From the IMG/VR virus record IMGVR_UViG_3300032322_001418, positions 1-63,541 of that record: DNA of 63,541 bases; one strand, given 5' to 3'. Below are positions 12,382 to 59,517 of the stretch, one piece after another; the first letter of the stretch is position 1, and each line of letters opens with the position of its first letter. Below the pieces are notes generated by a model. It was not told the origin of the DNA and searched no databases. It saw nothing but the letters and a program-made list of their open reading frames with translations. The translations under genes and the position numbers were made by a program. This stretch comes from a virus. Taxonomy: Duplodnaviria; Caudoviricetes.

Positions 12382-12410
12382 AGATTAACTGACTCAGGAA
12401 GCCATGTCAA
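12382..12410 (-). promoter_or_regulatory. Sigma70-type promoter whose -35 overlaps the terS start codon
   Basis: TTGACA-17-TAATCT; spacer 14/17 identical to promoter 11069-11097. Confidence 0.7.
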
Positions 12411-21146: not shown

Positions 21147-21149
21147 CCA

Positions 21150-21860: not shown

Positions 21861-21876
21861 CAAGGGGGAATCAGAG

Positions 21877-25113: not shown

Positions 25114-27552
25114 ATGGCTGCGCTGAATGGTGTGCTGACCGATGCGCCACGCATCAACGAGATGCCGGCCGACGATACTGGCGACTTCGAGACCGAGATC
25201 GATGGCGTCCTGATCAGTCGGCGCGGCGAGAATGTCGTGGTGGACTTCGCCCCCGGCGCTGACCGCGCTGGCCGGGATGACTCCGAGGGCCATTCCGGCA
25301 ACCTGTGCAGCCAGCTGCCGGAAAGTGAGCTGGCCAACCTTGCCAGCAAGATCATCGAGTACGTCGATGTGGACATCGAATCGCGCAAGGACTGGCAGCG
25401 GCGCATCGATCAGGCCATGGAGCTGATGGGTCTGAACAACATCCCGATGGACTCCCTGCCATTCGACGGCGCGTCTGCGGTGACCTATCCGCTGATCGGC
25501 GAAGCCGTGGTGCAGTTCCAAGCGAGGGCCATCGAGGAGATCTTCCCGTCTGATGGTCCGGCCAAGGTCAAGATCGTTGGCGAGCGGACGCCGGATCGCG
25601 AGGCGCAGGCGGAGCGTGTCCGTGAGCATATGAACTACCAGATGCTCGACCAAGACAGGTCGTACTTCTGGCAGACGGACATGATGCTGTTCTACCTGCC
25701 GCTGGGTGGGTCGGCCTTCAAGAAAACCTACTTCGACCCGATCCAGCAGATGACGGTCAGTCGATTCGTGCGCAGCAGCGACTTCATCGTGCCCTATGTG
25801 GCGACCGATCTTGCCTCAGCGCCGCGCTACACGCATCGCATGATCAAGACCGACAGCGAGATGAAAAAGCTGTTCGCGTCAGGGTTCTACCGTGAAGTGC
25901 CGCTGATGCAGGGCGGCTGGCTCACAGACACCGACAGCAACGAGCAGGCGGCGATCGACAAGGCGGACAGCAGGACTGCCTCGACCCACTACGATGACAA
26001 CAAGAACACGCTGCTGGAATGTCACATCGATCTGAGCCTGTCGTGTGACGAGGGGATGGCTGAGCATCCGCTGCCGTACATCGTCACGGTTCTCAAGGAA
26101 ACGCAGCAGGTCATTGGCGTCAGGCGCAACTGGAAGGAAGGCGACCAGACCTTCCGCAAGCGCATCTACTTCACCCACTATCGCTACCTGCCCGGCTTCG
26201 GGTTCTACGGATTCGGCCTGCTGCATCTGATCGGGTCGGTGGCCGAGGCCACGTCGTCATCGATTCGTGCGCTGCTGGACTCGGCGGCATTCGCCAACAT
26301 GCAGGGCGGCTACGCGTCCAGCGACGCCAAGTTCAAGCCGGGCGACGAGCGCATCGCCCCGGGCGTGTACAAGCAGGTCAACATGACCGCCGAGGAGCTG
26401 GCGAGGGCGTTCTATACGCCACCGTTCCGCGAGCCCTCGGCTGCCTTGGCCCGCCTCTTTGAGGCGCTGGTGCAGGCCGGCAAGTCGTTCACCTCGACCA
26501 CCGAGGCGATGACCGGAGAGGCCCCGACCACCGCTCCGGTCGGCACGACGATCGCCATGATCGAGCAGGGCAGCAAGGTATTCAGCGGCATTCACCGCCG
26601 GCTGCACATGGCGGCGGCCGAGGAATTCTCGCTGCGTGCCGAGCTGAACCACGAGTTCCTGCCAGACGAGTACCCCTACGAGGTAGAGGGCGGGGCCAAG
26701 ATGGTCCTGCGGCAGGACTATGACGGTCGCGTGGACGTGATCCCGGTCTCCGACCCGAATATCTTCTCGACCGCCCAGCGGATCGCGCAGGGGCAGGCGT
26801 TGATCGAGCTGTCGGCTGGGTCGCCTGACCTGTACGACCGGCGCAAGGTCCACATCAGGTTCCTCAAGAGCATCCGCGTGGCCGATCCGGAGGACTTGCT
26901 GCTGCCGGAGCAGGAGGTCAAGCGCTGCGACGCGATCACCGAGAACGCCAAGATGCTGACTGGTCGCCCGGCCAAGGCGTTTGTCGAGCAGGACCACGAC
27001 GCCCACATTGCGGCGCACATGAACTTCATGGCTGGCCTTAACAAGGATGCGCTGCAGATCGTCGGTATGCCGATGCAGGCGCACCTCGCTGAGCATTACG
27101 CCATGAAGTACTACGTGCAGATGAACCGCATGGCCAACGGCCAGCTGCCGCCGCTACAGCTTGACGCTGCCGGCGAGGAAGCAGAGCTTCCGCCTGAGGC
27201 TGATGCGATGATGTCGCAGTTTGCCGCGCAGGCTGGGCCGATCCAACTGATGCCTCCGGACGAGGAGGGGCCTGACGCAGAGCAGCAGGCGGCCATGGCC
27301 GAGGAGCAGCGCAAGCAGATGGCCTTCGAGGCCGAGCAGGCGCGCAAGCAGCAGGAGCACGAGCTGGAGCTGCAGCGGTCGCAGGAGAAGTTCGAGGCCG
27401 AGCTAGAGCGCGACAACCTGCGCGTCATGATGAACATCGACCGCGAGGACCAGAGCGCCGCAGCCAAGCAACGTCGCGAGGATGCGATGGCGCAGGTCAA
27501 GGCAAAGACAGCGCGAGGGAAGACAGGTGGAAAGGGTACTCAAGCCAAGTGA
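25114..27552 (+). CDS. Portal protein
   Basis: Follows terL; YPLIGEAVVQFQARA, LPLGGSAFKKTYFD, YLPGFGFYGFGLLHL, APVGTTIAMIEQG, VIPVSDPN; acidic coiled-coil tail. Confidence 0.92.
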   Translation: MAALNGVLTDAPRINEMPADDTGDFETEIDGVLISRRGENVVVDFAPGADRAGRDDSEGHSGNLCSQLPESELANLASKIIEYVDVDIESRKDWQRRIDQAMELMGLNNIPMDSLPFDGASAVTYPLIGEAVVQFQARAIEEIFPSDGPAKVKIVGERTPDREAQAERVREHMNYQMLDQDRSYFWQTDMMLFYLPLGGSAFKKTYFDPIQQMTVSRFVRSSDFIVPYVATDLASAPRYTHRMIKTDSEMKKLFASGFYREVPLMQGGWLTDTDSNEQAAIDKADSRTASTHYDDNKNTLLECHIDLSLSCDEGMAEHPLPYIVTVLKETQQVIGVRRNWKEGDQTFRKRIYFTHYRYLPGFGFYGFGLLHLIGSVAEATSSSIRALLDSAAFANMQGGYASSDAKFKPGDERIAPGVYKQVNMTAEELARAFYTPPFREPSAALARLFEALVQAGKSFTSTTEAMTGEAPTTAPVGTTIAMIEQGSKVFSGIHRRLHMAAAEEFSLRAELNHEFLPDEYPYEVEGGAKMVLRQDYDGRVDVIPVSDPNIFSTAQRIAQGQALIELSAGSPDLYDRRKVHIRFLKSIRVADPEDLLLPEQEVKRCDAITENAKMLTGRPAKAFVEQDHDAHIAAHMNFMAGLNKDALQIVGMPMQAHLAEHYAMKYYVQMNRMANGQLPPLQLDAAGEEAELPPEADAMMSQFAAQAGPIQLMPPDEEGPDAEQQAAMAEEQRKQMAFEAEQARKQQEHELELQRSQEKFEAELERDNLRVMMNIDREDQSAAAKQRREDAMAQVKAKTARGKTGGKGTQAK

Positions 27553-27966
27553 GGTGCGGGCGGCACGTGAGTTTCTGCGCAAGCGTGGCGTGCGCGGCGT
27601 GTCCCCCCGTAAGTTTGCCGGTGCCAGCGCTGAGACCGGCTTGTCGTTTCAGACCCTGCTTGCAAGTCTGGCGGGGGTAGCAAGGAAGATTCAATCATGA
27701 GCATCACAGTCCGTCGTTTCGTGACCGACTTCGAGAAGATCGTGTCTCAGAATGTCGTGGAGGAATCCATGAAGCTGAGCAGGGGGATTGCGCCCGACTA
27801 TGCCATCTACAAGCAGTCGTGCGGCTACCGTGCGGGTCTGGAGGCGGCCGTCGCCATCGCCCGGGAGATGCTGAAGCAGATCGAGGATCTGCAGGACCGC
27901 GACGAGGGTGGCGAGCTGCCCGAGATCAAGCCTGCCCGACAGCCCAAGCAGAGGGTTCAGGCATGA
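27527..27966 (+). CDS. Two small head-operon proteins (27527-27700, 27697-27966)
   Basis: Coupled ORFs; the second has DYAIYKQSCGYRAGLE. Confidence 0.65.
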
Positions 27967-28361
27967 CGGTCAAGCAGTGTACGTTCGAGGCTCCGGTGCG
28001 TGACCTGAACGCCTGCCCGATCAAGCCACTTGGCTGGCGGCTGGTGATCGCGCCATACGAGCCCGAGAACACCTCGCAGGGTGGCATCCTGATTGCCGAG
28101 CAGGCGCTCGAATCGGAGCGGCTGCTGACCTTCTGCGGCAAGGTGGTCGCTGTCGGAGAGGCGTGCTACAAGGCCGTGACCCGTTCCGGCCTTGACATGT
28201 CGCTATGGGAGCGGACCCCGAAGGTGGGCGACTGGGTGATTTACGGAACCTATGGTGGTCAGCGTGTCGTGACCAAGGGCGGTGCCCGTTTCGTGATCAC
28301 CAATGACGATGCGGTGCTGGCCATCGTGGATGGTCCGCAGGACTTCAAGTACTACCTGTGA
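27963..28361 (+). CDS. GroES-like co-chaperonin
   Basis: IKPLGWRLVI...TSQGGILI...GKVVAVG...KVGDWVIYGTYGG...ITNDDAVLAIV. Confidence 0.9.
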   Translation: MTVKQCTFEAPVRDLNACPIKPLGWRLVIAPYEPENTSQGGILIAEQALESERLLTFCGKVVAVGEACYKAVTRSGLDMSLWERTPKVGDWVIYGTYGGQRVVTKGGARFVITNDDAVLAIVDGPQDFKYYL

Positions 28362-30540: not shown

Positions 30541-31455
30541 ATGAGCGTCATGAATCGCGCACGGTTCCGCAAGCAGCTTCAGGAAGGCCTCAACACGGTC
30601 TTCGGTCTGGAGTATCGCCGGTACGAGCAGGAGTGGCGGCCGATCTTCGATGTCGCCAACTCCAGCAAGGCATACGAGGAGGATGTCCTCCTCGCGGGTC
30701 TGGCTGGTGCCCCTGTCAAGCCGGAGGGTGCCCCGGTCGCCTACGACATGGGCGGCGAGGCATTCGTGTCCCGCTACGTCCACGAGACGATCGCGCTGGC
30801 GTTCGCCATCACCGAGGAGGCCGAGGAGGACAACCTCTATGGCAGCGTCGGCCAGAAGTACGCCCGCGCTCTCGCTCGCTCGATGCAGCACACCAAGGAA
30901 GTGAAGGGTGCGGCCATCCTCAACAATGGCTTCAGCGCTTCGTTCCCGGGTGGTGACGGTGTTGCCCTGTTCAGCACCTCGCATCCGCTGTTCGGTGGTG
31001 GCACGCAGTCCAACACCTTCGCGACGCAGGCCGATCTCAGCGAGACCTCGCTGGAGGAGGCGCTGATCGCGATCAGCAAGTTCGTGGACGAGCGTGGCAT
31101 TCCGGTCGCTGTTCGCGGCCAGCGTCTGATCGTGCCCCCGGACCTGATCTTCGTTGCCGAGCGCCTGCTCGCCTCGACGGGTCGCCCGGGCACGGCTGAC
31201 AACGACGTGAATGCGATCCGGTCGATGGGCATGCTGCCCGGTGGCATGGCCCAGAACCATCGCCTGACCGACTCCAACGCATGGTTCATCAAGACCGACT
31301 GCCCGGATGGTCTGAAGCACATGGTGCGCAAGAACATCCAGCGCGGCCTCGAAGGCGACTTCGAGACGGGGAACATGCGTTACAAGGCGCGTGAGCGCTA
31401 CAGCTTCGGCTGGAGCGACTACCGTGGCGTGTTCGGTTCGAGCGGTGTGAACTGA
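30541..31455 (+). CDS. Major capsid protein
   Basis: LQEGLNTVFG, HETIALAFAITEEAEEDNLY, GDGVALFSTSHP, DFETGNMRYKARERYSFGWSD; TAAGGAGG RBS. Confidence 0.93.
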   Translation: MSVMNRARFRKQLQEGLNTVFGLEYRRYEQEWRPIFDVANSSKAYEEDVLLAGLAGAPVKPEGAPVAYDMGGEAFVSRYVHETIALAFAITEEAEEDNLYGSVGQKYARALARSMQHTKEVKGAAILNNGFSASFPGGDGVALFSTSHPLFGGGTQSNTFATQADLSETSLEEALIAISKFVDERGIPVAVRGQRLIVPPDLIFVAERLLASTGRPGTADNDVNAIRSMGMLPGGMAQNHRLTDSNAWFIKTDCPDGLKHMVRKNIQRGLEGDFETGNMRYKARERYSFGWSDYRGVFGSSGVN

Positions 31456-44958: not shown

Positions 44959-45447
44959 ATGGCGAAGATTTCAATCAGGGTTGCGAGGGCTGTCGATGCC
45001 TCCAACCTGTATCGGCTGCTGGAGGAGGTTCACTCAGAATCTCCGCAGTATCCGCCGGTGGACCCGGCCATGGGCCTGCGCTGGGTGACAGACACCTTGT
45101 GCGACGGGTACGTGATTGTTGCGGATTTGTCTGGCAGACTGATAGGGTCTCTGGCACTGACCAACTACCAGTTCCCGTGGTCGCGGCGCTGGTATCTGTA
45201 CCTCGAATGGCTCGCGGTGTACAAGCGGTTCAGGGCAGAGGGCGCGTTTGATGCACTGATGGCGGCGGCTCACGCATACGCTGATGAGCTGAAGGCTCCC
45301 ATCCTCGCTGGTGTCTCTGCGTCTGGGAAGGATGTGTTCATCAAGGACCGTCTGATCCAGACGCGTGGGTATACCTACATCGGGGGATCTTTCATCAGGA
45401 GTGCCGCCAATGGGCAGCAGCAAGAAAAAGACCAAGCAAGTCTATAA
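44959..45447 (+). CDS. GNAT-family acetyltransferase
   Basis: IRVARAVD, LIGSLAL, LEWLAVYKRFRAEGAFDALMAAAHAYA. Confidence 0.8.
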   Translation: MAKISIRVARAVDASNLYRLLEEVHSESPQYPPVDPAMGLRWVTDTLCDGYVIVADLSGRLIGSLALTNYQFPWSRRWYLYLEWLAVYKRFRAEGAFDALMAAAHAYADELKAPILAGVSASGKDVFIKDRLIQTRGYTYIGGSFIRSAANGQQQEKDQASL

Positions 45448-46321
45448 GCCGCCGGAGTGGGTCGAGGACGCGTCCAAGCAGGCCATTGGGCTTGGGCGTC
45501 AGATCGGCTCGCAGGCCTATGAATCCTACGGTGGCGACCGTGTGGCGGGGCTGTCTGAGAACGAGCAGCGCGCTTTGACGCTGGCCGGGCAGTCCGAAGG
45601 CCAGTGGAAGCGCTACCTCGACCAAGGTGAGGCAGCGCTGAGCCGCATGGGCGAGCGCTTCACCGATACGGACATTCAGGGCTACATGAACCCCTACATC
45701 AGGGGTGCGCTGGAACCTGCCGCCCGAGAGGTGCGCGAGTCTGGCGCGCGTCGTCTTGCCGACTTGCGCGCCACCCGAGCCCAGCGAGATGCCTTTGGTG
45801 GCTCGCGTGGTGCGCTTCTCGAATCAGAGGCGCAGCGTGGAACAGAGCAGACGCTGAGCGATCTGTACGCTCGCGGCTATGGCCAAGCCTTCGAGTCGGC
45901 TGCCGATCGCTGGGAGCGAGACCGGGCGGTCGGCATGCAGGAGGCACAGGGCTACAACGTGCTGGCGCAGCTCTATCAGGACGCCACCCAAGCCGACATC
46001 AACGCCCTAATGACGACGGGTGCCACGGATCGAACGATCCGGCAGTCGCTGGCCGACTTCGACTACCAGCAGTTCAGGGAGGGGCGTGACTGGGACGTGC
46101 GCAATCTGGCTGGCCTGCTGTCGGCCATCCAAGGCACGCAGGGTTCCTATTCCACCACGACCACGACCACTGAGAAGCAGAGTGGCGGGGCTGCCAGTCA
46201 GCTCCTCGGCTTGGCGGCCACGATCGGTGGCGCGGTCATGACGGGTGGTGCCAGTCTTGCCACGCTGGGTGGCGCACTGTCTACCGCTGGCCAGAGCGTG
46301 CTTGGCGGCAAGCAGACGTAA
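45410..46321 (+). CDS. Internal virion/ejection protein
   Basis: YESYGGDRVAGLS, YMNPY, AFGGSRGALLE, C-terminal Gly/Ala hydrophobic tail. Confidence 0.75.
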   Translation: MGSSKKKTKQVYKPPEWVEDASKQAIGLGRQIGSQAYESYGGDRVAGLSENEQRALTLAGQSEGQWKRYLDQGEAALSRMGERFTDTDIQGYMNPYIRGALEPAAREVRESGARRLADLRATRAQRDAFGGSRGALLESEAQRGTEQTLSDLYARGYGQAFESAADRWERDRAVGMQEAQGYNVLAQLYQDATQADINALMTTGATDRTIRQSLADFDYQQFREGRDWDVRNLAGLLSAIQGTQGSYSTTTTTTEKQSGGAASQLLGLAATIGGAVMTGGASLATLGGALSTAGQSVLGGKQT

Positions 46322-47645: not shown

Positions 47646-50600
47646 ATGGCCACCGACCCGAAGGCGCTTGAGCAGGAACTGGATCTCGCCTACCAGAAGT
47701 TCAGCAAGGCCCATGAAGCTGGAGATCGCGAGAACGCCAAGCGCTTCAGGGACTATGCCTTGGAACTGGAGAAGGCGATCGAGGAATCTCGACGCCAGCC
47801 TGCAGCGCCTCAGGAGTCCGGTATCGAGGTAGACGAGGCCGCGCCGAAGGCTGCGCCAAAGCCGTATACCCCGCCAAAGGCCGAGGCCCAGCAGCCTGCC
47901 GACACCGGCATTGACTGGGGCGAGGACATCCCCCCGCCGGCGCGGCGTGATGGCACGCCGATCCTGATTCCGCCCGGCTCCACCAAGCCGACCCAGAAAA
48001 CCGAGATCGAGGGCGGCGACCTGTGGACCGCCATCAAGTACTCGGCAACGTCCCGCGTCTCGAACTATCTGTCGGCTCGCGAGAACATTCGCCGCCGCCG
48101 CAACCTGACGACCTCGCTGGTGGCGCGCGAGCTGCCAGAGGAATGGCGCACTGAGATCGAGTCGTCTGCTGACAAGCCCATCAAGTCGATGACTTTCATG
48201 GAGCTTGATATTCGCGCTCGCCGCCGCTATGGCGACAAGTACGATGAAGTCCTCGGCAGGCTGAAGGAAAACCCCTCCGTAGCCTCGATGATTGACGAGG
48301 CCAAGACCGACTCCGGGGTCAACCTGTACGAGTCGATCATCAGGCCGGCATTCAGTCCGTCCGACGAGTTTTCTGTTGCCGATGTCTGGAAGGAAAAGCT
48401 GGACAGCACGGTCAAGCAGTACAGCGAGTCTGCGCAGCAAGGCAGGGAAAAGCCGTTCCTCAACCCAGAGGCGACCATTGAGCCCGGCACTTGGTTCGAG
48501 GGGACCAAGATGCCTTGGGAAGATCTCGACGCGTTTGTGCTATCTGCTGCTGAGAACTCGGTGCAGATCGGCGAGGGTATTGCTGCCGCTGCCGTTGGTG
48601 GCAAGGCTGCCGGGCCGATCGTGTCGCGTCTGGTTGGAAGGACTGCCACGCCTCAGGCCTTGAGGGCGGCCACCGACAAGGTTGCCGGCCGCCTCGGCAT
48701 GGCCGCCGGCGCGACCTCCGAAGCCTACTCGGTCAAGGATCAGGTCGAGGCAGAGACGTTCCAGCGCCTTCAGTCGCTGCCTGACGAAAAGTGGCAGACG
48801 GACGAGGAATACCACCGTCTCCGCGATGGCGGCCTCACTGATGAGGAGGCTCGCTTTGTGCGGTCGCAGGAGCTGTCTGCCACTGCCGGAAACGTCGCTG
48901 GTGTCGTGTCTGGCTTGGCCCTTGGCGCTCCCATGGGCTACCTGTACGGCAAGCTGGCTGGCCGGCAAAGCGCCGCTCTTGGCTCGCGGGAGATGGTATC
49001 TGCACTATCGCGCAGCACGCTTGGCGCTGCCAAGGGTTTCGCTGGAGAGGCCGCGCAGGAAGGCACTCAGGAATTCACGGAAAACACCATCGGCAATGTT
49101 GCCGTCAGGATGGTTGATCAGGAGCAGCAGATCTTTGCTGGCGGCTTGAACGCATTCCTTGGCGGTGCCGCCATGGGTGGTGCGTATGGCCTTGCTGGCG
49201 GCGCGCTGTCTGCCGCAACCGGCGTGCCCGGCATCGACAAGGAAACTCAGAAAATCCTCGACGCATCGCGCGCGTGGGAGTCTGCAGCCAAGGCGCGCTG
49301 GAAGTTGCAGGCGGAAATTGGCGACCCCAACTGGGGCACCGACATGCTGCCCGGCGAACGCCTGAGAAAGATGGTCGATCTGGAAAACCTCCAGATGGAG
49401 GAGGCCGAGGCATTCAATGGCGTTGAGCCGCTGCTGCGCAAGCAGATGACCGCCAACAACGCTGGCGAGGCTGAGTTTGCGGCACTTGACCGCATGGCAG
49501 CCAGCGCCAAGGCGACCATCGATAGGGTCAAGCAGTCGCGTGAGTCACGCGAGGAATCGCAGCGCGCCGCTGAGGAACAGCGGAAGGTTGATGCCGAGCG
49601 TGAGCAGATCCGCGTCAAGATCGAGCTTGACCAGATGAAGCTGGCGGATGTTGAGCGCATGGCCGACAACATCCACAAGGTTCGCTCCATGCAGGCGCTG
49701 GAGCAGGCAGATTACGAGGAGCTTCAGAGAGAAGGCTACGGTCGGTGGAACGTCAAGGGTGACAAGTTCATCATCACGCCAAAGGGTGTGCGTGCTGCCG
49801 GCGAGCTTGAGCGTCAGGCCGAGCTGCTGAACCAGCGTCTCCAGTCTGGCTACACCGGACCTGAGCGGCGCGCAAACCTGCAGCTGCGCGAGCGCATCAA
49901 GGCGATGAGCCCCGAGCAGCTTGAAGCTGCCGTCTATCTCACCGACAAGACAAACCTGCTGAACAGGCGCGCGTTTGACGAGGCTGAGAAGGACAATCCG
50001 TCTCCTGCTTATGCAGAGATCGACGCAGACTCGGTTGCGTGGGTCAATGACAACTGGGGTCACGAGTATGGCGACAAGCTGTTGTCTGCCATTGCTGATG
50101 CTGTTAGGGAAGAAACAAAAGACCTAGATGGAGTCGCCGCGTACCACAAGAGCGGAGATGAATTTGCCATCACTGGTACGTCGGAGGAGCAGCTTGAGGA
50201 GATCATGCAGCGTGTCAAGACACGCCTGCAGGGTAGCCCGATTGTCAACGGAAAAGAGTCCGTCCTGCCGACAGTAACGTGGGGCACAGGCCCCACCAGC
50301 GTCGATGCAGACAAGACGATGCTGGAACGCAAGAAGGAACGCACCGCTGCCGGAAAGAGGGCTGATCGCAAGGCGCGTCCTGCTACATGGCAATCATCTT
50401 CATTGCTGCTGATGACTGGCGGAGAGGATGTCGATGCCGAGCCTGCTGGTGAGCATGGCAAGGCACAGTTGTCCATGCTGGACGTTGGCTATGGGTATGG
50501 CTTCAGTGGCGGCGAAGGCATGCGTTTTGGGCCAGCGAGGGCAGATGCGCTGGCTATTCCTGCTGAGTTTGCCGAGCTTGTTGGCGATCCCAGCAACCTG

Positions 50601-53600
50601 TCGTTTGTCCGTGATGGCAATGGCCACGAGGCTATCAGCGGTGCTGATGCCAAGCGAATCATCGAGGCGATCGCAGAAAAGCACGGCATCGAAACGCCGT
50701 CGTCTGTAGCTACTGCTTTGTCTCGCTCTCAGGTTCCGTTGCTTGAGGCTGGAATTCGCGTGCTTGGCAGGGAGATTGACCTGTCTGCAGGAACGGTGCG
50801 CTCCATCATTGATGGTGACGCCAAGACGGTCGCCCTAGACACGATGAACAAGATCCTTGCTGGGTTCCGCGTTGCGGTCAGCAAGTCCAGCCCCGGAATG
50901 TACAACGCCGACAGTGAGCAGGCAGCACTGCCCGCTGCATGGGCGTCCAAGATCACGCTGGTAAAGCCGTCGCTGCCAAAGCAGAAGGCTATTCGAGAAA
51001 CCCCGAGGTTTGCCGCAGGCTCTCAGCAGCCGTTTGATTTCGACTTCAAGCCGCGCTACACGACAAGGGCCAAAAGGGCGTCGAGGAAGCACATGCGCCG
51101 GGCTGAGGCGGCCATGGCTGCTGTGTTTGGTCAGTACAAGAACCTTCCGACAGTCACCTTGGTAAACACGGTCGATGATCTGCCAAGCGGCGTGCTTGCA
51201 GACTTGCGCGCCATGGGCGGCAATCCCTATGGCGTGCGCGGCATGTTCGATGAAAAGAATCCTGCCAATGGCGTGTTCATCGTTGTCGCCAACAATCTCA
51301 ACGTCTTGTCTCGTGATCTGAAAAAGCCGGTGTCGTCAATCAAGCCGTCCGAGCTTGAGGGGGCGATCATCGAGACCGCGTTCCATGAAATCGTTGGTCA
51401 CTATGGCCTTCGTGGCTTGGTAGGCAGTCAGGAGAATCTTGATCGTCTTGCTGAGCTGATCGTCAAGTCGTTCCCGCGCGAGGCCACTGCTACTGCGTTG
51501 CGCATCGGTGCAAACATGGCCTTGCCACGCCATCGAGCGCTCGTTGGCGAGGAGACGTTCGCATATCTTGCCGGCGAGATTTTGGCCAAGCGAATCACGC
51601 TTGATCCGAAAGAGCGCACCTTGTTCAGGCGAGCCATCAACTGGGTCAAGACGCTGCTGCGCAAGCTCAAGTTTGATCGGTTCCTGAAGATGACCGATCG
51701 GGACATGATGGCGCTGATTGCCGAGGCGCAGATCTTCGTCAAGTCTGGGAACAAGTGGAAGTTCCAGACCATGAACGGAGAGACGTTGACGCCTTACATG
51801 CGCAACATGGAGATGTTCAAGAACGGAATGCTGAAGGCTGTCCAAGAGGGGACCAAGCCGCTCAACAAGAATGAGCGCGCGGCGCTGGCTGCCAAGGATC
51901 CGGCCATGGCCGGCGTTAAGGAAATGCCGCTGTTCCCAGAGACTGGCACCGTTTCCGCGTACATCGCCGCAGTCGAGTATGCGATGGCAAAACTCGGCTA
52001 TGTCAGCAAGACCGAGCTGACCGCATCTGGAATCATGGAAATGCTGCGTCCGCCGCTGCTGCGGAAGCTGGCATTTGATGTCCATCCTGAGACTCTAGAT
52101 GAAAATGGTCGCGGCCTTACCGATCAGCAATTCGCTGCGCATTTTGGCGTGCCGCTTGAAGATCTTGACGAGTTCTTGCTGTCAAATTCCTTGACAGAGG
52201 AGCAGGTTGCAAAGGCACAAGAGCTTGTCGAGCGGTTCGACCTAGATCGTGACATCTACTCGTCAGAAAGACTTGCGGCCAACAATGGTCTGAATGCCCA
52301 GCAGCTGCGCAGCTATGTCGATGGCGGCATCGATGAGCAAATCAAGCTGTTGCCTCCGCGCGTACGCCCAAAGGTTGAGGAGCTGCTTAATATCCGCTCG
52401 CAAGCGATGAGCAGCAGGGATGATCAGTACATCAATGCAACTCTTGAAATCGATAAACTTTTCAGGGCACCAGCTGACCCGAAGACGACGGTCATCAACA
52501 AAAAGATGATCTTGAAGTGGCTCACTGATGCCTTTGCGCACGTCGAAATTTTCCCGTGGTCTATCGCTGATGTAGACCCAACGGATGCTCAGGCTGTAAA
52601 GCTGGCCTACACAAGGATCACCGGGCAGCGCCCGTTGCTACCCGGCTATGCGCACGACCAGCTCAACGACAATGCGCCTTGGACTGCTGGCGATGCGCAG
52701 TCATTCCTGATGGGGCTTGATGAGGAATTGCGCGAGAGGGTCATCGCCGAGATGGCTGCCATCAAGGCAAAGGGATATGACTACGGATTTGATCCTCAGC
52801 TGAACCGCTGGTTTGATTGGGTGCAGCCAAACAAGCAGCACGAGCATAGCCGCTACACCCCTGCCGGGCTGTCCACCGAGGAATACATGACTGTCGCCTT
52901 GTACGACAAGTCAGCGATGAAAGTCCGCTCTGAAAGCATCAGGCATGGCCACTATTCTGGGTCTGCTTGGCCGCGCGGGAATGTAGGTGTGCTGTTCCAC
53001 ATCAGGCAGAGCGTGGTCAATGATGCGTCCAAGAATCCGCCTACCGCTCCAAACAGCAAGTATCAGGGTAAGGCGTGGTATCTGGTTGAGCTGCAAACCG
53101 ACTGGTTTGACAAGCATCGGTCGCTGAATAGCGAGGCTGCCCGCGTTGCTTTGACGGCTCGCACCAGAGAAAAAGGCGACGCCCTGTTCACGTCAATTGG
53201 TGCGTTCACAGACGTTGTTAGCAGGCAGGTATTTGATGCAATGGTCGAAAAGACCAAGAGCATCATTGAATCAGTCTTGCCTGATGCTGAGCAAGACGCT
53301 GATGCGTGGCTCAGCGCTGCGACTGAATCTGTAAAGCAGAACGAAAGCAAGCGTATTGGAGTGCAACCTGAAAACCTCAGGCAGGTGCTGATCGAGCGCA
53401 GGCTAAAGTCTAGGACCAGCGAGCGGCTTTCGATGCTCGCCGGCGAAATTGTCAATTTCATGGGCGATAGAAACACTCTGTTGCACAAGGCAACTTCGTC
53501 TCGCCGCCTGCGCATCACTGCGGACGCCAGAGAAATTGCCCGCGCCAACAACATGGCGGTCAAGGAATTTTTGTGGGGGATGAGCCGCAGGATCGTTACC

Positions 53601-56600
53601 ATCAGGGAGGCCGCGTCGAATGCCAATTGGTATACGTCATGGAATGGCACGGAGCCGGTCTTCAGCGACGAATTTAAGGACATCCTTACGTTTGGCGAGG
53701 TGACAAGGGCGTCTCTATACGACTCTCGCAGCAGCTATTCGAGTCTCAGCGTGCATCAGCATATCGCCAATGCGATTGGAACTAGCCAGCTATCTAGGCT
53801 TGGCTATGCCAAGAAGGAGCTTAGGCGGGAGCTTGAGCTGCTGTATGACAAGCTTGGCATTGATCTGAGCAAGCTCGATCACGCCATGTCTAGCCTGTCA
53901 GAGGCAAAGGTGTATCGCTGGTCAGTGCCACTTGACACGATCCCGGTCATTCTAGACGGCGAAAAGGCGATGCACGCTGGCGCTGATTCGTTCATCAGGT
54001 CAGCCATTGATTACGTACACAAGGTTGACCATCGCTATTCGTCAGAAAACTTCAGGGTGCAAAGCGACGTTGGCAACGCCGACTCAGACGTATCGATCAG
54101 CTATACGGGATTGGTCGCTGAAAGCCTAGATGAAGCCAAGGAAGTGCTGCTAAAGGCCATTGATCACTACGTGTCAAATGAGCTGCCCCAGCTTTTTGAC
54201 GCGTGGGCAGATGAAGTGGTCGTCAATACAACGAGGCAGCGTGAGCGCAATAGGCTCTCAAGCTCAGACGATCAGGAGCTGGCAAAGAAAACCATTCAAT
54301 GGCTTGGCCTTGAGGAAAAAGATACCGACGAATTCAGCAACGTAACCGAATACTCGCTTGGCCACTATGGAATTGTGACCAAGGAAGACTACGTATCAGA
54401 AAGACTCCCGGACGAGATCGACTTCTACCGCGAAAATGGGGAGAACTACATCGACTGGAGCGCAGAAGAATTCGACGATCATCCGCTTGACACCGATCAT
54501 CCGGAGTATCGGAGCCGTGTCGTTGTTGATGCAGATGAAAATGAAGATGCGACCCTAGCAGATGCGTGGCTTGAAGAACGCAGACGCGAGCGGGTCGAGG
54601 AGATGCTTGAGGGAGGCGGCTATCTGTATCAGATGGCAGAGGAAGCTGCTGCGTCAAATTATGAAGATCAGGTCATCTACCATGCGATCCTTCCATCTGG
54701 AATCGTCAACAGGGATCTTGATCCGATCCCGCAGGTAGAGATTGTTCAGGTCAAGAGTCACAGCGGTGACTGGAGCGTCTGGGTTGACGGAGAGTATGTT
54801 GCCGAGGGTTTGTCTCGCGAGCGAGATGCTGACATAAAATTGATGCAGGGTGTGATTGCCTATCTTGAGGACAATCGTGTAATTGCGTGGAAGCCTGAAT
54901 TCCCGTGGAGCCAGCAGGCCCCTGCGCAGCCAGATCCTGTTGATCGCCCTGAAAAGCCTGACTTTACGTCTTACGCAAAGGCCATCGCAGGGGAAATCGA
55001 AAAGAGCGGCGAGGCAACAGTCGTTGACGCTGGCGTCCTATACGAGCAGGTAATCGATGCCGCGAAAATCACCTCGTCCCCGGTGGTGCCAAAGTCTCAC
55101 CTAGCCAAAGACGAGGTGTGGCGGCTTATTGCCCTGCGCTACATCATTGCTGACGCTGTCAGGCGCGGCATTCCGAAAGTCATGTGGCATGGCGGCGAAG
55201 GAACCAGCAAGCGCGGCGGCGGCCTGAGCTTCACGACCGTTGAAAGAATCGTATGGCGCAAGGCGTCAATGGAAGTCAACGGCAAGACCAAGGACGTGGT
55301 TGTCATCGAGACACCGCGATACTCTGGCAATTCAATCATTCTTGAGTTGTCCGCAGACAGGATTGCCCCTGTCCTTGGCCAAGACGTTTATGAACTGATG
55401 ATGCGCCAGATTGCTGGCAAGGCCCCGCTGCGCGCTGGCGAGGCAGATATCAGCGGAACGCCGCAGCTTGATGATCTTGTTATTGGCCGGGCTGGAGAGT
55501 CTTGGGTTTTGCATCGTGTTGGTGATCCATCGATTCTCAGCATTGCCACCACCAGAGAGGAGATTGAGGGCATCCGCAGCCAAATGTTTGCAGATGCTCA
55601 GCGCAATGGCTCGTGGACTGCAGTCTTATCGCAGTCCCCGGTGCAGCGGTCGATCAGCAGTGGTTACGGTGAAAGCCACGAGGAGACCGCTAGGCTAATT
55701 GCGGATTTTGAGGCAAAAGTCCCAAATCTTGGCGTGTCTGAGGCAGACATCTCGATGTCTGGCGAGATCACTGGGGACATGCTTGGTGGTGGTTACATCT
55801 ACCTAGCAACTCACGAAACAGACTCGTTCATGCATACGCCAGCCGGAGCCGATAGCTATGGCGCTCGGCTGATGGGCGCACGAATCAACTATGACGGCAT
55901 GCTCAACAGGATCTGGTCAAAGGAACTGAAGAAGTACGGTGTGCAAATCACATCCGGAGCTGCTGTCGTTCCAAGCTCAATGACCGCTGACGAAGTTAGG
56001 GCTGAAGGCTTGCGAGTCACCAGCAGCTACAGCGATGCATTTGTGCAGCAGTATGGAACGCCAGTGATTGTCAAGATCAGCGGCGAGACATCCGGCTTCG
56101 CTGTTGTCAGTAATGCTGGCCCGATACTCAATAGGGTGTATTGGACCAAGGATGAGGCTGAGCGTGCGCTGAATGAATTCGTGCGCACCAAAAATGCAGA
56201 GTTGCTGTCAACCAAACTGTACGAGTTCACGATCAATGACGCTTTGAGGGAGGCGTTTTCTGGCCCTGTCGTGCCATTCAATTACGATCCGTACAAGGAT
56301 CCTGTACTGAAGGCTGCGGCAGAGCGCATTGGCAGCCGTAAGCCAAGCCTCAGGTCGCGCATCGATGCGTGGCGCAGGACGTGGAAGGACTCGTTCCTGC
56401 AGGGCACGTTCGATCGTTTCCATGGCATCAAGTCGGCAATGACGGACGCAGACCTGCTGAAGGTCGAGGCCGCCCAGAATCCGTACATCCAAGCACGGCT
56501 GTCCACCTCGCTTGATTCCGTGATGACTGCGGTCATGGACTATGGCCACCCGATCTGGAAGGACGGCATCGTCCAGACGGAGGGTCGTGGGCTTGCTGAA

Positions 56601-59090
56601 GTCCTCAGGCCAGTGTCTGGCCAGATCGAGTTGTGGGCCATGTACATGGCTGGCGTGCGCGCCAAGCGGCTGTTGTCAGAGGGTCGCGAGAACCTGTTCA
56701 AGCCTGAAGAAATTGATGCGATGGTCAAGCTTGGCGACGTGTACCCGATGTTCAAGGAAGTCGCCAAGGACTACGCAGCGTTTCACAAGCGTGTGCTGGA
56801 CTTTGCGCAGGAAGCCGGGGTCATCAATCCCGAGACCCGGCCAATGTGGGAGAACGCGGATTACGTCCCGTTCTACCGTGTCGAGGACGACCGTCTGGTC
56901 GGGCCGCTTGGCCCGGGTCGTGGCATCGCCAACGTCAGATCTCCGATCAAGCAGCTGAAGGGCGGCACCGAGAACGTCCAAGACATCATGCACAACATCA
57001 TGGTCAACCTCACCAATCTGGTAGACGGTGCCATGAAGAACCATGCTGCGTTGCTGGCGGTGGATTCACTGCGCCAGAGCGGCATCATTGCGCGTGAGCC
57101 GTTGGCGTTCTCGGCAGAGCTGATCCCGCTGGAGCAGGTCAAGAAACTGCTGATCGACAAGGGGATCAATCCGGCGACCATCCCGCCTGATGCCCTGAGC
57201 GGGTTCCAGAAGATGTTTGCCCTGCAGGCCCCGAAGGGCGACGGCATCATCAGCGTGCTGCGCAATGGCAAAAAGGAGTTCTACTACACTGACGACCCGA
57301 TCCTGTTCAGGGCGCTGTCGTCCATCAACCAGAAGTCGTGGGGCGCATGGATGAGCCTGCTGCGCGGGCCGAAGCGCCTGCTTACTTCATGGGTTACGCT
57401 GGACCCGGGCTTCATGATCGCCAACTTCATGCGCGACGCCTTGTCGGCATTCGTCATCAGCCGCGACAAGTTCATCCCGATGGCGGCCGGGCTCAAGGGT
57501 TTCGCCAAGGCGCTGGTCAAGGACGAGGACATGCGGACGCTGCTGTCGTCAGGCGCGTCATTCGAGTCAGGCTTCATCAGCCAAGGCGACCCGGAGACGA
57601 CCAAGCGGATGCTGAAGGCAAAGATGAAGGACAAGTCCTTTGCCAGAACCGTGCTTGACTCGCCGGTGAAGCTGTATGAGGCATGGAAGGCCATTGGGTC
57701 TGCGGCCGAGAATGCCAACCGTCTGGCCGTCTATCAGGCTGCCCTGCGTGCCGGCAAGTCCAAGGCGCAGGCTGCTTACGAGGCCAAGGATCTGATGGAC
57801 TTCTCCATGTCAGGCGACTGGCCAATGATCCAGTTCCTGATCCAGACGGTGCCGTTCATGAACGCCCGCCTGCAGGGTCTGTACAGGCTTGGTCGCGGCG
57901 CAGCAGAGCACCCGGTGGCCTTCACCATGAAGGGTGCGCTGGTCGGCATGGCTGGGCTGGCCTTGTGGTTCGCCTTCAAGGATGACGAGCGCTACAAGGA
58001 TCTGGAGGACTGGGACAAGGACACGTACTTCCACTTCTGGATTGACGACCAGCACTACCGGCTGCCGAAGCCGTTCGAGATCGGCGCGATCTTCAACACC
58101 ATTCCGGAGCGCATCTTCGAGTACATGTACTCGAACGAGACCGATGCCGGCAAGCTGCTGCTGAAGCGGTTCGGGTTCATGCTGACGGAGACGTTCTCCA
58201 TGAACCCGATCCCGCAGGCAGTGATGCCGATGGTGGAGAGCTGGTTCAACAAGAGTTTCTTCACCGGCAACCAGATCGTGTCGCCATTCGAGGAGCAGCG
58301 TCTGCCGCCAGAGCAGTACCGCTACTACACCGCGCCGACGTTCATCGAGCTTGGCAGGGCTCTGCCTGCGCCGCTCGACCTCGCCAGCGACAAGATCCGC
58401 AGCCCATTGCAGCTGCAGAACCTGTACTACGGCTACACCGGGACGCTTGGTCGGTATTTCGTGATGGGCTCTGACGCCCTGCTCAGGCACTACGCAGAGA
58501 TGCCCATGCCGCCTGAGAAGACGATCGCTGAGTACCCGGTGATCGGCAGGTTCGCTCGCGGCGACGATCCGCGACGCACCCGCTACGAGGAGGAGTTCTA
58601 CAACATGCTGCGCAAGACGCTGCAGGTTCAGAACTCGGTCAGGTTCCTCGATAAGGTCGGCGAGGATGAGCGCATCGACTACATCGAGGGCAAGTACGAC
58701 CCGTACATCGTCGTGGCCAAGGAGCTGGAGAACGCCCGCCAGCAGGTCCAGAAGCTGGATCAGCAGATGCGCGAGATCTATCTGGACCCGGCCATGACCC
58801 CGCAGGAAAAGCGGCGGGAGGTGGATCAGCTGCAGACCGAGAAGAACGCCATCTTCAAGGAAGCCTACCTGCTGCGTCCGGGTGGCCCGGAAAACAGGCA
58901 GCGTCCGGCCACGCAGGAGGAGGTCAAGTTCCTGATCGAGCGGTTCAACTTCAGCCAGCCTGAATCCAACAAGCTGCGCGAGGTTGCCCCGATCACGGCT
59001 GACCTGCTGCAGGAGATCAAGATCCTAGAGCCCAAGTCTTTGGCATCGATCGCCAAGCTCGCGCCAATCGAGGAGAGCCCGAATGAGTAG
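47646..59090 (+). CDS. 3814-aa large polyvalent (internal virion) protein: GGDEF-like, zincin metallopeptidase-like and C-terminal LPD38-like domains
   Basis: NRRAF...IDAD...VND.WGH..GD...SGDEF; HEIVGHYGL...EE; WDKDTYFHF...RLPKPFEIG; last gene of the ejection block. Confidence 0.85.
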   Translation: MATDPKALEQELDLAYQKFSKAHEAGDRENAKRFRDYALELEKAIEESRRQPAAPQESGIEVDEAAPKAAPKPYTPPKAEAQQPADTGIDWGEDIPPPARRDGTPILIPPGSTKPTQKTEIEGGDLWTAIKYSATSRVSNYLSARENIRRRRNLTTSLVARELPEEWRTEIESSADKPIKSMTFMELDIRARRRYGDKYDEVLGRLKENPSVASMIDEAKTDSGVNLYESIIRPAFSPSDEFSVADVWKEKLDSTVKQYSESAQQGREKPFLNPEATIEPGTWFEGTKMPWEDLDAFVLSAAENSVQIGEGIAAAAVGGKAAGPIVSRLVGRTATPQALRAATDKVAGRLGMAAGATSEAYSVKDQVEAETFQRLQSLPDEKWQTDEEYHRLRDGGLTDEEARFVRSQELSATAGNVAGVVSGLALGAPMGYLYGKLAGRQSAALGSREMVSALSRSTLGAAKGFAGEAAQEGTQEFTENTIGNVAVRMVDQEQQIFAGGLNAFLGGAAMGGAYGLAGGALSAATGVPGIDKETQKILDASRAWESAAKARWKLQAEIGDPNWGTDMLPGERLRKMVDLENLQMEEAEAFNGVEPLLRKQMTANNAGEAEFAALDRMAASAKATIDRVKQSRESREESQRAAEEQRKVDAEREQIRVKIELDQMKLADVERMADNIHKVRSMQALEQADYEELQREGYGRWNVKGDKFIITPKGVRAAGELERQAELLNQRLQSGYTGPERRANLQLRERIKAMSPEQLEAAVYLTDKTNLLNRRAFDEAEKDNPSPAYAEIDADSVAWVNDNWGHEYGDKLLSAIADAVREETKDLDGVAAYHKSGDEFAITGTSEEQLEEIMQRVKTRLQGSPIVNGKESVLPTVTWGTGPTSVDADKTMLERKKERTAAGKRADRKARPATWQSSSLLLMTGGEDVDAEPAGEHGKAQLSMLDVGYGYGFSGGEGMRFGPARADALAIPAEFAELVGDPSNLSFVRDGNGHEAISGADAKRIIEAIAEKHGIETPSSVATALSRSQVPLLEAGIRVLGREIDLSAGTVRSIIDGDAKTVALDTMNKILAGFRVAVSKSSPGMYNADSEQAALPAAWASKITLVKPSLPKQKAIRETPRFAAGSQQPFDFDFKPRYTTRAKRASRKHMRRAEAAMAAVFGQYKNLPTVTLVNTVDDLPSGVLADLRAMGGNPYGVRGMFDEKNPANGVFIVVANNLNVLSRDLKKPVSSIKPSELEGAIIETAFHEIVGHYGLRGLVGSQENLDRLAELIVKSFPREATATALRIGANMALPRHRALVGEETFAYLAGEILAKRITLDPKERTLFRRAINWVKTLLRKLKFDRFLKMTDRDMMALIAEAQIFVKSGNKWKFQTMNGETLTPYMRNMEMFKNGMLKAVQEGTKPLNKNERAALAAKDPAMAGVKEMPLFPETGTVSAYIAAVEYAMAKLGYVSKTELTASGIMEMLRPPLLRKLAFDVHPETLDENGRGLTDQQFAAHFGVPLEDLDEFLLSNSLTEEQVAKAQELVERFDLDRDIYSSERLAANNGLNAQQLRSYVDGGIDEQIKLLPPRVRPKVEELLNIRSQAMSSRDDQYINATLEIDKLFRAPADPKTTVINKKMILKWLTDAFAHVEIFPWSIADVDPTDAQAVKLAYTRITGQRPLLPGYAHDQLNDNAPWTAGDAQSFLMGLDEELRERVIAEMAAIKAKGYDYGFDPQLNRWFDWVQPNKQHEHSRYTPAGLSTEEYMTVALYDKSAMKVRSESIRHGHYSGSAWPRGNVGVLFHIRQSVVNDASKNPPTAPNSKYQGKAWYLVELQTDWFDKHRSLNSEAARVALTARTREKGDALFTSIGAFTDVVSRQVFDAMVEKTKSIIESVLPDAEQDADAWLSAATESVKQNESKRIGVQPENLRQVLIERRLKSRTSERLSMLAGEIVNFMGDRNTLLHKATSSRRLRITADAREIARANNMAVKEFLWGMSRRIVTIREAASNANWYTSWNGTEPVFSDEFKDILTFGEVTRASLYDSRSSYSSLSVHQHIANAIGTSQLSRLGYAKKELRRELELLYDKLGIDLSKLDHAMSSLSEAKVYRWSVPLDTIPVILDGEKAMHAGADSFIRSAIDYVHKVDHRYSSENFRVQSDVGNADSDVSISYTGLVAESLDEAKEVLLKAIDHYVSNELPQLFDAWADEVVVNTTRQRERNRLSSSDDQELAKKTIQWLGLEEKDTDEFSNVTEYSLGHYGIVTKEDYVSERLPDEIDFYRENGENYIDWSAEEFDDHPLDTDHPEYRSRVVVDADENEDATLADAWLEERRRERVEEMLEGGGYLYQMAEEAAASNYEDQVIYHAILPSGIVNRDLDPIPQVEIVQVKSHSGDWSVWVDGEYVAEGLSRERDADIKLMQGVIAYLEDNRVIAWKPEFPWSQQAPAQPDPVDRPEKPDFTSYAKAIAGEIEKSGEATVVDAGVLYEQVIDAAKITSSPVVPKSHLAKDEVWRLIALRYIIADAVRRGIPKVMWHGGEGTSKRGGGLSFTTVERIVWRKASMEVNGKTKDVVVIETPRYSGNSIILELSADRIAPVLGQDVYELMMRQIAGKAPLRAGEADISGTPQLDDLVIGRAGESWVLHRVGDPSILSIATTREEIEGIRSQMFADAQRNGSWTAVLSQSPVQRSISSGYGESHEETARLIADFEAKVPNLGVSEADISMSGEITGDMLGGGYIYLATHETDSFMHTPAGADSYGARLMGARINYDGMLNRIWSKELKKYGVQITSGAAVVPSSMTADEVRAEGLRVTSSYSDAFVQQYGTPVIVKISGETSGFAVVSNAGPILNRVYWTKDEAERALNEFVRTKNAELLSTKLYEFTINDALREAFSGPVVPFNYDPYKDPVLKAAAERIGSRKPSLRSRIDAWRRTWKDSFLQGTFDRFHGIKSAMTDADLLKVEAAQNPYIQARLSTSLDSVMTAVMDYGHPIWKDGIVQTEGRGLAEVLRPVSGQIELWAMYMAGVRAKRLLSEGRENLFKPEEIDAMVKLGDVYPMFKEVAKDYAAFHKRVLDFAQEAGVINPETRPMWENADYVPFYRVEDDRLVGPLGPGRGIANVRSPIKQLKGGTENVQDIMHNIMVNLTNLVDGAMKNHAALLAVDSLRQSGIIAREPLAFSAELIPLEQVKKLLIDKGINPATIPPDALSGFQKMFALQAPKGDGIISVLRNGKKEFYYTDDPILFRALSSINQKSWGAWMSLLRGPKRLLTSWVTLDPGFMIANFMRDALSAFVISRDKFIPMAAGLKGFAKALVKDEDMRTLLSSGASFESGFISQGDPETTKRMLKAKMKDKSFARTVLDSPVKLYEAWKAIGSAAENANRLAVYQAALRAGKSKAQAAYEAKDLMDFSMSGDWPMIQFLIQTVPFMNARLQGLYRLGRGAAEHPVAFTMKGALVGMAGLALWFAFKDDERYKDLEDWDKDTYFHFWIDDQHYRLPKPFEIGAIFNTIPERIFEYMYSNETDAGKLLLKRFGFMLTETFSMNPIPQAVMPMVESWFNKSFFTGNQIVSPFEEQRLPPEQYRYYTAPTFIELGRALPAPLDLASDKIRSPLQLQNLYYGYTGTLGRYFVMGSDALLRHYAEMPMPPEKTIAEYPVIGRFARGDDPRRTRYEEEFYNMLRKTLQVQNSVRFLDKVGEDERIDYIEGKYDPYIVVAKELENARQQVQKLDQQMREIYLDPAMTPQEKRREVDQLQTEKNAIFKEAYLLRPGGPENRQRPATQEEVKFLIERFNFSQPESNKLREVAPITADLLQEIKILEPKSLASIAKLAPIEESPNE

Positions 59091-59517
59091 CCCGTTCAAG
59101 TTTGGCAAGGCGTCCAACGACAAGCTGAAGACCTGCCATCCTGATCTTGTGAGGGTGGCAGAGCTTGCCCTGTCCAGATCTCCGGTTGACTTCACCATCG
59201 TCTGGGGCTGGCGGGATGCGGCCCAGCAGAATGCCATGGTTGCCGCCGGCGCCAGCAAAACCCCGTGGCCGAAGTCCAAGCACAACGCGACGAACCAAGC
59301 CGGGGAGCCTGCGTCGAACGCCATAGACTTCGCCCCGGTGGTCGGTGGAACAATCCCGTGGAAGGACACGCACCTGTTTGCCGTCGTGGCCGGCGTGCTG
59401 ATGTCTGCTGCGGTGGAACTTGGCGTCAGGCTAAGATGGGGCGGAGATTGGAACATGAATGGCCTGACCACCGATCAGACGTTCATGGACTGGGGCCACG
59501 TAGAGAGACTTGAATGA
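59083..59517 (+). CDS. Endolysin, M15-family (L-Ala-D-Glu) peptidase
   Basis: HPDL, G.R...QQ, SKH...AIDF, RWGGDW, DWGHVE. Confidence 0.92.
   Translation: MSSPFKFGKASNDKLKTCHPDLVRVAELALSRSPVDFTIVWGWRDAAQQNAMVAAGASKTPWPKSKHNATNQAGEPASNAIDFAPVVGGTIPWKDTHLFAVVAGVLMSAAVELGVRLRWGGDWNMNGLTTDQTFMDWGHVERLE

Follow-up and report, generated by a model that had tools for sequence, protein, structure and literature searches.

GGDEF (diguanylate cyclase) domains in polyvalent proteins were described by Iyer, Burroughs, Anand, de Souza and Aravind (2017; PMC5512222), with a protein of an Acetonema longum prophage as the example, and the same authors speculated that such domains disturb cyclic nucleotide signals or exploit them. 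Here we analyse a GGDEF domain in the viral record IMGVR_UViG_3300032322_001418 (Duplodnaviria; Caudoviricetes), the whole of which, 63,541 bp, complete and with direct terminal repeats, is the window of this study. The domain lies within an open reading frame (ORF) of 3814 amino acids (aa) at 47646-59090 (+), as given by the ORF list and its translation. Like the published example it shares a giant (pro)phage protein, of predicted delivery at invasion, with domains of other kinds. A preliminary description of this DNA, written from the letters alone, had already stated that GGDEF is counted among polyvalent-protein domains, which is indeed printed in the 2017 paper. The window is a clean and typical example of that combination and not a surprise; the present analysis adds how large the subfamily is, by what signature it is recognised and which domains it prefers as neighbours. 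The SGDEF signature, the His before it, the missing I-site, an N-terminal ERR..R motif and the adjacency to pyrophosphatases all appear to go beyond the account of Iyer et al., the supplementary lists of which may hold more carriers.

Sequence comparison leads us to favour, at a probability of about 0.55, a virion-delivered, feedback-free GGDEF nucleotide cyclase carried in a polyvalent protein, with cyclic di-GMP (c-di-GMP) as its most likely product. A podovirus-like phage would carry the polyvalent giant inside its capsid and eject it along with the DNA into the cell, where the GGDEF domain would act still attached or after release by a peptidase. Two copies would pair, each binding GTP through Asn801 and Asp810 and Mg2+ through Asp793, Asp838 and Glu839, and the paired domains would condense two GTP to c-di-GMP and two pyrophosphates (PPi) with no product feedback on the cyclase. 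The benefit to the phage would lie in counter-defence or in reprogramming of the cell surface and motility.

Identity and fold of the embedded domain

By the limits of the phage subfamily the domain occupies 49863-50372 (+; aa 740-909), with the Pfam core at 49950-50297 (+; aa 769-884). The motif set that had been quoted from 49851-50345 is identical to the translation, which reads YTGPERR...LTDKTNLLNRRAF...EIDADSVAWVNDNWGHEYGDKLL...AYHKSGDEFAI...ADKTMLERK. The Pfam family GGDEF (PF00990) matched aa 769-884 of the whole protein with 38.0 bits, passing the curated cut-off of 23.8 (E 1.9e-9), and the fragment alone with 44.5 bits (E 1.8e-11); TIGR00254 scored 42.4 bits against a cut-off of 37.4, and a six-frame search of the record with GGDEF gave 43.7 bits at 49950-50300. 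A phmmer search against PDB sequences returned 49 matches at E ≤ 1, nearly all of them GGDEF proteins, the best being SadC (4wxo, 1.4e-10), with PleD at 5.9e-6. NCBIfam yielded generic cyclase models only, each far below its equivalog cut-off; none of the named bacterial cyclases is thus an orthologue of the domain.

The AlphaFold 2 (AF2) model of aa 726-910, built with 28 sequences, has a mean predicted local distance difference test score (pLDDT) of 92.6 and a predicted template modelling score (pTM) of 0.81. Foldseek found 103 matches to this model in the PDB at E ≤ 1e-3, and all of the top matches listed are diguanylate cyclases or GGDEF-domain entries, led by SiaD (4.1e-11), with DgcZ, WspR and PleD also in front. 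A library of viral structures gave only 8 entries at E ≤ 1e-3, among them the protein of Bordetella phage CN1 and part of a larger viral protein. Profile and model bear out the domain assignment that had been made by eye, and we regard it as practically certain that aa 740-909 adopt a GGDEF fold. A Cas10/mCpol-like palm or a class III cyclase, both of related fold, was considered and rejected, the best sequence and structure matches all being GGDEF cyclases. A chance or shadow ORF was ruled out by the E-values and the 3814-aa open frame; the overlapping minus-strand ORFs at 49545-50063 and 50060-50476 were taken for shadow frames in DNA of 60 % G+C.

The canonical cyclases PleD, WspR, SadC, SiaD and DgcZ share with the window copy the fold, an upstream helical stalk, the metal-binding Asp, the Asn/Asp pair that reads guanine and the GDEF acids. 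Unlike these enzymes it lies inside a 3814-aa phage protein, has neither a sensory or receiver domain nor an RxxD feedback site, carries Ser for the first Gly of the signature and His for Arg ahead of it, and has an extra Arg motif at its N-terminus. It is also shorter than the canonical domain, the Pfam match stopping at position 132 of 161.

Active-site residues and conservation in the phage subfamily

An exhaustive phmmer search with aa 726-910 against 1.84 billion cluster representatives (clusters at 50 % identity) returned 12,189 matches at E ≤ 1e-3 and 11 at E ≤ 1e-30. Whereas Iyer et al. called GGDEF 'not very widespread' in polyvalent proteins, 664 clusters were found here at E ≤ 1e-10, and 129 contigs encode a relative in a scan of IMG/VR. 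Word-indexed searches recovered far less, with only 3 relatives among proteins of 2097-6675 aa, a large underestimate against the exhaustive search, and a single stand-alone relative among proteins of 101-324 aa, a method of low reach where tblastn and the exhaustive search gave many. The subfamily was aligned as the best domain of 153 proteins, namely the 150 best cluster representatives together with P0004, P0005 and gp43 of Pseudomonas phage MP1412, and the row counts that follow refer to this alignment.

The block DADSVAWVND (50022-50051, +) holds the metal-binding Asp793, Ala798 at the position of PleD K332 and the guanine-reading Asn801, while the SGDEF signature (aa 836-840; 50151-50165, +) follows Tyr833-His834. 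The residues given as essential in a review (PMC7288161) are PleD D327, N335, D344 and the signature Glu. The preliminary description held the equivalents of D327, N335, D344 and DEF to be kept, and we could locate them as D793, N801, D810 and the signature acids D838 and E839. Across the subfamily these positions and their surroundings are nearly invariant: D793 is present in 152 of 153 rows, D795 in 147, L797 in 148, N801 in 153, D802 in 149 and G809 in 153, and G837, D838, E839 and F840 in 152, 152, 153 and 145. All eight scored residues are kept in 113/152 rows.

The signature itself varies, reading SGDEF in 89 of 152 rows, GGDEF in 32, KGDEF in 13, HGDEF in 5 and otherwise in 13, and the residue two before it is His in 118 and Arg in 34; in the window His834 stands in the place of PleD R366. 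RxxD is found within the 14 residues upstream of the signature in 3/152 rows, and is absent from these 14 residues in the window, EETKDLDGVAAYHK. Ala at the K332 equivalent, SGDEF, His before the signature and the absence of RxxD had all been listed as variant features; each is seen in the translation, yet SGDEF and His turn out to be the family norm, and only Ala798 is peculiar to the window copy. Ser at the first signature position is compatible with activity, because an SGDEF enzyme, ECA3270 of Pectobacterium atrosepticum, is active as cited in PMC3974145. The link to the window domain is through the motif, and ECA3270 is a bacterial regulator and not a phage protein.

Two basic regions frame the domain. 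RRANLQLR (49866-49889, +), the conserved N-terminal Arg motif of the subfamily (E740 R741 R742 ... R748, or ERR..x5..R), keeps R741 in 144, R742 in 150 and R748 in 146 of 153 rows. This motif is absent from canonical GGDEF descriptions and falls in a lower-confidence loop of the AF2 models; it may contact substrate phosphate, bind product or assist pairing. At the other end, KKERTAAGKRADR (50331-50369, +) carries conserved basic residues in the last helix and the following loop, lying about where PleD has K442/R446, with K896, R899, G903, R905 and R908 kept in 148, 140, 147, 133 and 139 of 153 rows. On the alignment we define the subfamily signature as [YF]-[HR]-x-[SGK]-G-D-E-F with no RxxD and an N-terminal ERR..R.

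The features peculiar to the window copy bear on whether it is catalytic. Ala798 lies five residues after D793, and the alignment with SadC pairs Lys with this Ala; the subfamily has Lys here in 134 of 152 rows, Ala in 10 and Gly in 7. The five-residue insertion TKDLD (50115-50129, +), right before the signature strand in the loop that bears the RxxD I-site in canonical cyclases, is almost private to the window copy, its columns being gapped in 143-147 of 153 rows. Both would fit a module that in this phage binds GTP or c-di-GMP, serves as a scaffold or pairs with host cyclases as a dominant negative, and degenerate GGDEF sensors are known (PMC7288161, PMC3974145). We consider this unlikely, since the equivalents of D327, N335, D344 and the GDEF acids are all intact, PleD K332 reportedly contacts the GTP phosphates through its main chain (PMC7288161), and no I-site is there to bind c-di-GMP. 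Scored with a family hidden Markov model (HMM) built without the window, the domain reaches 208.8 bits against a median of 226.7 and ranks 107/153, so the window copy is ordinary and not decaying. A nucleotide sink or dominant-negative partner, as the preliminary description had also suggested, is possible and has no specific support here.

Catalysis is favoured because the essential residues are near-invariant, an SGDEF enzyme is active elsewhere and many relatives have a pyrophosphatase in their neighbourhood. The subfamily as a whole is quite probably enzymatically active, and the window copy, with somewhat less assurance, also appears to be so.

An active enzyme need not make c-di-GMP, and the alignment contains hints of other chemistry. 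Such a cyclase might produce cyclic GMP-AMP (cGAMP), cyclic di-AMP, a linear pppGpG-type dinucleotide or a decoy nucleotide, and any of these would jam or mimic nucleotide-based immunity, in line with the interference with host nucleotide signals proposed by Iyer et al. The phosphate-side Arg is His in most rows, the conserved ERR..R has been added, and the guanine-reading Asp at position 810, D in 126/152 rows, is replaced in the other 26 (N 18, T 4, S 3, E 1); Ser at this position marks the cGAMP-making Hypr GGDEFs according to PMC7288161. In 5/153 carriers (P0044, P0076, P0079, P0104, P0122) a 2H/Acb1-like phosphoesterase expected to act on cyclic nucleotides stands 24-87 residues from the GGDEF domain, possibly setting a maker beside a breaker of cyclic nucleotides. 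The window copy, in contrast, keeps the canonical GTP-specific pair N801/D810, as do most of its relatives, and we give a product other than c-di-GMP little weight.

Synthesis of a dinucleotide would call for two domains. Ahead of the GGDEF domain lies a predicted helical stalk (49455-49844, +), and in the AF2 monomer of aa 600-930 (36 sequences, pLDDT 92.7) aa 604-680 form one 77-residue helix, a small helix with a beta-hairpin comes next, and aa 712-733 form a further helix of 22 residues; E, K, R, D or Q make up 47 % of residues 616-740. The coiled coil ending in YTGPERR that had been described therefore holds as regards helices ahead of the domain, while GYTGPERR itself falls in a lower-confidence loop between the 22-residue helix and the GGDEF domain, and the model is of a monomer only. 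Solved cyclases with stalks, SiaD, DgcB and GCN4-WspR, are among the best structural matches. A two-copy prediction of aa 726-910 with the alignment, two GTP and two Mg gave a median score of 0.40 against a mark of 0.42, a value that speaks on neither side of the question of pairing. Hints of pairing come from the long upstream stalk and from two tandem GGDEF copies in seven carriers (P0009, P0017, P0058, P0063, P0070, P0091, P0114), an arrangement that might be expected of a domain working in pairs.

Carrier proteins and the link to the virion

The subfamily is found mainly in very large proteins. For the 152 best rows, the carrier reaches 1000 aa or more in 122, 2000 aa or more in 84 and 3000 aa or more in 47, and is shorter than 400 aa in 11. 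The C-terminal LPD38 module of the window protein recurs in 37/153 carriers, and 25 of these are among the 47 giants of 3000 aa or more. Fifteen carriers, picked by hand and not at random, were scanned with Pfam; PF00990 was found at E ≤ 1e-5 in 12 and polyvalent-specific families in 11 (LPD1, 3, 5, 22, 23, 38, 39, ART-PolyVal, InPase and ddrB-ParB), with SNF2 or Strawberry-notch helicases, methylases, RadC and a 2H/Acb1-like domain in others. In 74 of the 80 IMG/VR loci kept, the ORF with the domain extends beyond the ±3 kb locus, and in the 62 of these with the 5′ end inside the locus the domain lies from a few hundred to ~1100 residues past the nearest upstream stop.

A polyvalent-type inorganic pyrophosphatase occurs in 21/153 carriers (P0030, P0033, P0045-P0047, P0049 and 15 more), on either side of the GGDEF domain; 18 of the 21 have it no more than 160 residues away and 13 no more than 60. 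In proteins thousands of residues long such closeness is unlikely to arise by chance, a judgement made with no formal null, and it suggests a cyclase joined to a module for PPi removal. Clearance of PPi was raised by Iyer et al. (PMC5512222) for nucleotidyltransferases generally. The window protein itself has no pyrophosphatase, no 2H/Acb1-like domain and no tandem GGDEF.

Closer to hand are stand-alone relatives in cultured phages. A tblastn search of GenBank phages matched 68 records, all below 60 % identity, comprising 39 Pseudomonas phages (YuA-like in the rows listed), 9 Bordetella phages, 11 unannotated faecal contigs and a few weak matches apparently of ordinary-cyclase type; none of the 68 is a cultured phage with the giant-embedded form. 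MP1412 gp43 (156 aa), of the type found in YuA-like Pseudomonas phages and Bordetella Vojvodinavirus, belongs to the same subfamily (tblastn identity 31-37 %), sharing with the window copy SGDEF, the lack of an I-site, a DxDSLKWxNDNxGH block and a basic C-terminal tail. Unlike that copy it retains Lys at position 798 and has Arg, where the window has His, ahead of SGDEF, and it is a small separate gene of a siphovirus, in a non-structural region and adjoining klcA. On the family HMM it is the second-poorest fit (rank 152/153). The stand-alone genes of YuA and Vojvodinavirus are annotated as cyclases. The only biology found for the subfamily is that Bordetella LK3 lysogens form excess biofilm, a phenotype not tied to the GGDEF gene. 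In the YuA-like phages MP1412 and BL8 the stand-alone gene lies directly 5′ of the antirestriction gene klcA, and in BL8 a coding sequence annotated as 'anti-restriction protein' overlaps the end of the GGDEF match in a different reading frame.

The association of the giant protein with the virion is argued from its C-terminus and from gene order. Its C-terminal module (57240-58865, +) contains LPD38 (E 1.5e-39 in Pfam) at aa 3447-3633 (57984-58544), with a hydrophobic segment at aa 3424-3442 in a hydropathy scan, and the C-terminal 540 aa match phrog_18222 and phrog_9854 in PHROGs. LPD38 is restricted to phage-type polyvalent proteins according to Iyer et al. (2017, PMC5512222), and we assign the giant ORF to that class on its domain content. 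In a tblastn search the C-terminal 542 aa matched 52 phage records, of which 51 cover at least 80 %. Two of these records were inspected. The match falls in a protein of 3190 aa in phiARM81mr, where it is annotated as a virion structural protein, and in one of 2197 aa in PTXU04, and in both the giant gene comes towards the end of the structural genes, as it does here. The giants of phi24B (gp47), phiARM81mr, PTXU04 and Pag-Yong1 share the LPD38 module of the window protein at 27-37 % identity over ~540 aa but carry different cargo (methylase, RelA/SpoT, MuF-C), and none of these four phages is among the 68 GenBank records that match the GGDEF region. Proteomics reported in a 2026 preprint places phi24B gp47 (LPD5, LPD1, LPD38, MuF-C) in virions, and an ejection protein was proposed there; the giant DarB-like gp69 of the Bcep22-like phage JC1 is virion-associated by mass spectrometry and serves as an analogue only. 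The preliminary description counted the giant gene as the last and largest of a podovirus ejection block, and its place at the end of the structural genes agrees with this: a gene of a DNA ejection protein family (45365-46321, +; phrog_4287, E 2.5e-20) lies 5′ of it, and the endolysin gene (59083-59517, +; phrog_465, E 5.4e-44), which marks the end of the block, lies 3′. By analogy with these phages the giant is probably an internal virion or ejection protein, and we lean towards delivery of its GGDEF domain from the virion.

How the domain might be freed inside the cell is suggested by a HExxH-type motif seen in the sequence, HEIVGH (aa 1247-1252; 51384-51401, +), with HELVGH at the same place in P0003 and P0004. 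The surrounding region, aa 1181-1480, is matched by 29/153 relatives and comes nearest to clusters of LPD23, LPD1 and MuF_C in a language-model look-up, a weak lead. The motif may mark a candidate zincin processing peptidase of the polyvalent protein. Pfam at E up to 10 gave nothing credible on aa 1-599, 911-1180 and 1181-1480.

The stand-alone genes raise the question whether delivery matters at all. A gene of ~156 aa among non-structural genes beside klcA, in cultured YuA-like and Vojvodinavirus phages, implies that the subfamily works when expressed from the genome. The domain might accordingly never be delivered, or might act late in the producing cell by changing its surface or excluding other phages, its virion link being incidental. 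The excess of carriers of at least 1000 aa (122/152), the extent of the ORFs in 74/80 IMG/VR loci and the presence in virions of LPD38 or giant last-gene proteins (phi24B gp47, and JC1 gp69 as analogue only) all speak against this, and we think it improbable.

Several points count against a virion-delivered cyclase. The phage is uncultivated, and its virion content is deduced from gene order and from phi24B gp47. No Pfam-recognisable processing peptidase was found in the giant protein, and pairing of the GGDEF domains is a presumption. At the active site, the phosphate-binding Lys/Arg of the last helix cannot be mapped one-to-one onto PleD and is ambiguous, the alignment with SadC pairing the canonical Lys/Arg with K904/R908 and the spacing from the Ala-Asp motif pointing to K896. 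The canonical Arg before the signature is His both here and in 118/152 rows, and Ala798 departs from the Lys of 134/152 relatives, the closest, P0003 and P0004, included. No biochemically characterised phage GGDEF was found in the literature, subscription journals not being covered, and the benefit of raising c-di-GMP at entry is not obvious.

Genome neighbourhood and biological meaning

The record has a G+C content of ~60 % and a single tRNA-Gln gene. Its structural block runs from terminase through portal, capsid and tail fibres to the ejection protein, the giant gene and the endolysin. The large terminase gene (23276-25111, +) is followed by the portal gene (25114-27552, +), the gene of the major capsid protein (30541-31455, +) and, further along the same strand, tail-fibre-like proteins that include ORFs of 840 and 1804 aa. 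Next come a GNAT acetyltransferase (44959-45447, +), the ejection-protein gene and, between this and the giant ORF, a 432-aa ORF (+) of unknown function. The scanned ORFs of the record matched no family of tape-measure, tube or sheath proteins. The portal is closest (33-41 % identity) to those of roseophages CRP-901/902, pelagiphages HTVC027P/023P, Caulobacter phages and Planktothrix phage Pag-Yong1, which we take to be podoviruses. With megablast the giant gene matched no GenBank phage.

Within the giant gene G+C falls to 0.54 at 52001-56000, compared with ~0.60-0.63 elsewhere, as would fit cargo domains acquired in mosaic fashion. The most G+C-rich stretch of the genome (0.66) contains a 1307-aa ORF (16477-20400, +) with no match in Pfam or PHROGs. 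Directly 5′ of the large terminase gene, 20412-23462 (+) encodes a run of sugar-modification type with a glycosyltransferase-like gene, a nucleotide-sugar epimerase and a methyltransferase. An ORF between the portal and capsid genes (27819-28361, +) matches a GroES-like co-chaperonin (phrog_3188, E 3.8e-16). The gene for the small terminase subunit (12404-13054, +) lies ~10 kb 5′ of that for the large subunit, a separation also seen in Bcep22-like podoviruses according to the JC1 paper.

In the second-messenger warfare of phages and bacteria known so far, it is mostly the host that has the synthases and the phage that answers with nucleases and sponges. The reverse move would be made, if the reading of a virion-delivered cyclase is true, by a phage that carries an unregulated cyclase into the cell in its virion. 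More tentatively, and with considerable doubt, a large clade of feedback-free GGDEF cyclases may be standard virion-delivered polyvalent cargo, an enzyme of counter-defence or takeover acting before phage transcription in the first seconds of infection. The cell would then be flooded with c-di-GMP or a decoy dinucleotide, or its GTP drained locally, by a cyclase with ERR..R in place of the usual regulatory inputs and often with a fused pyrophosphatase or 2H phosphoesterase. This would make it the first second-messenger synthase to be injected by a bacterial virus. A direct test is feasible because cultured stand-alone representatives exist in Pseudomonas and Bordetella phages, and the fused pyrophosphatase and 2H domains of the embedded relatives provide concrete biochemical hypotheses.

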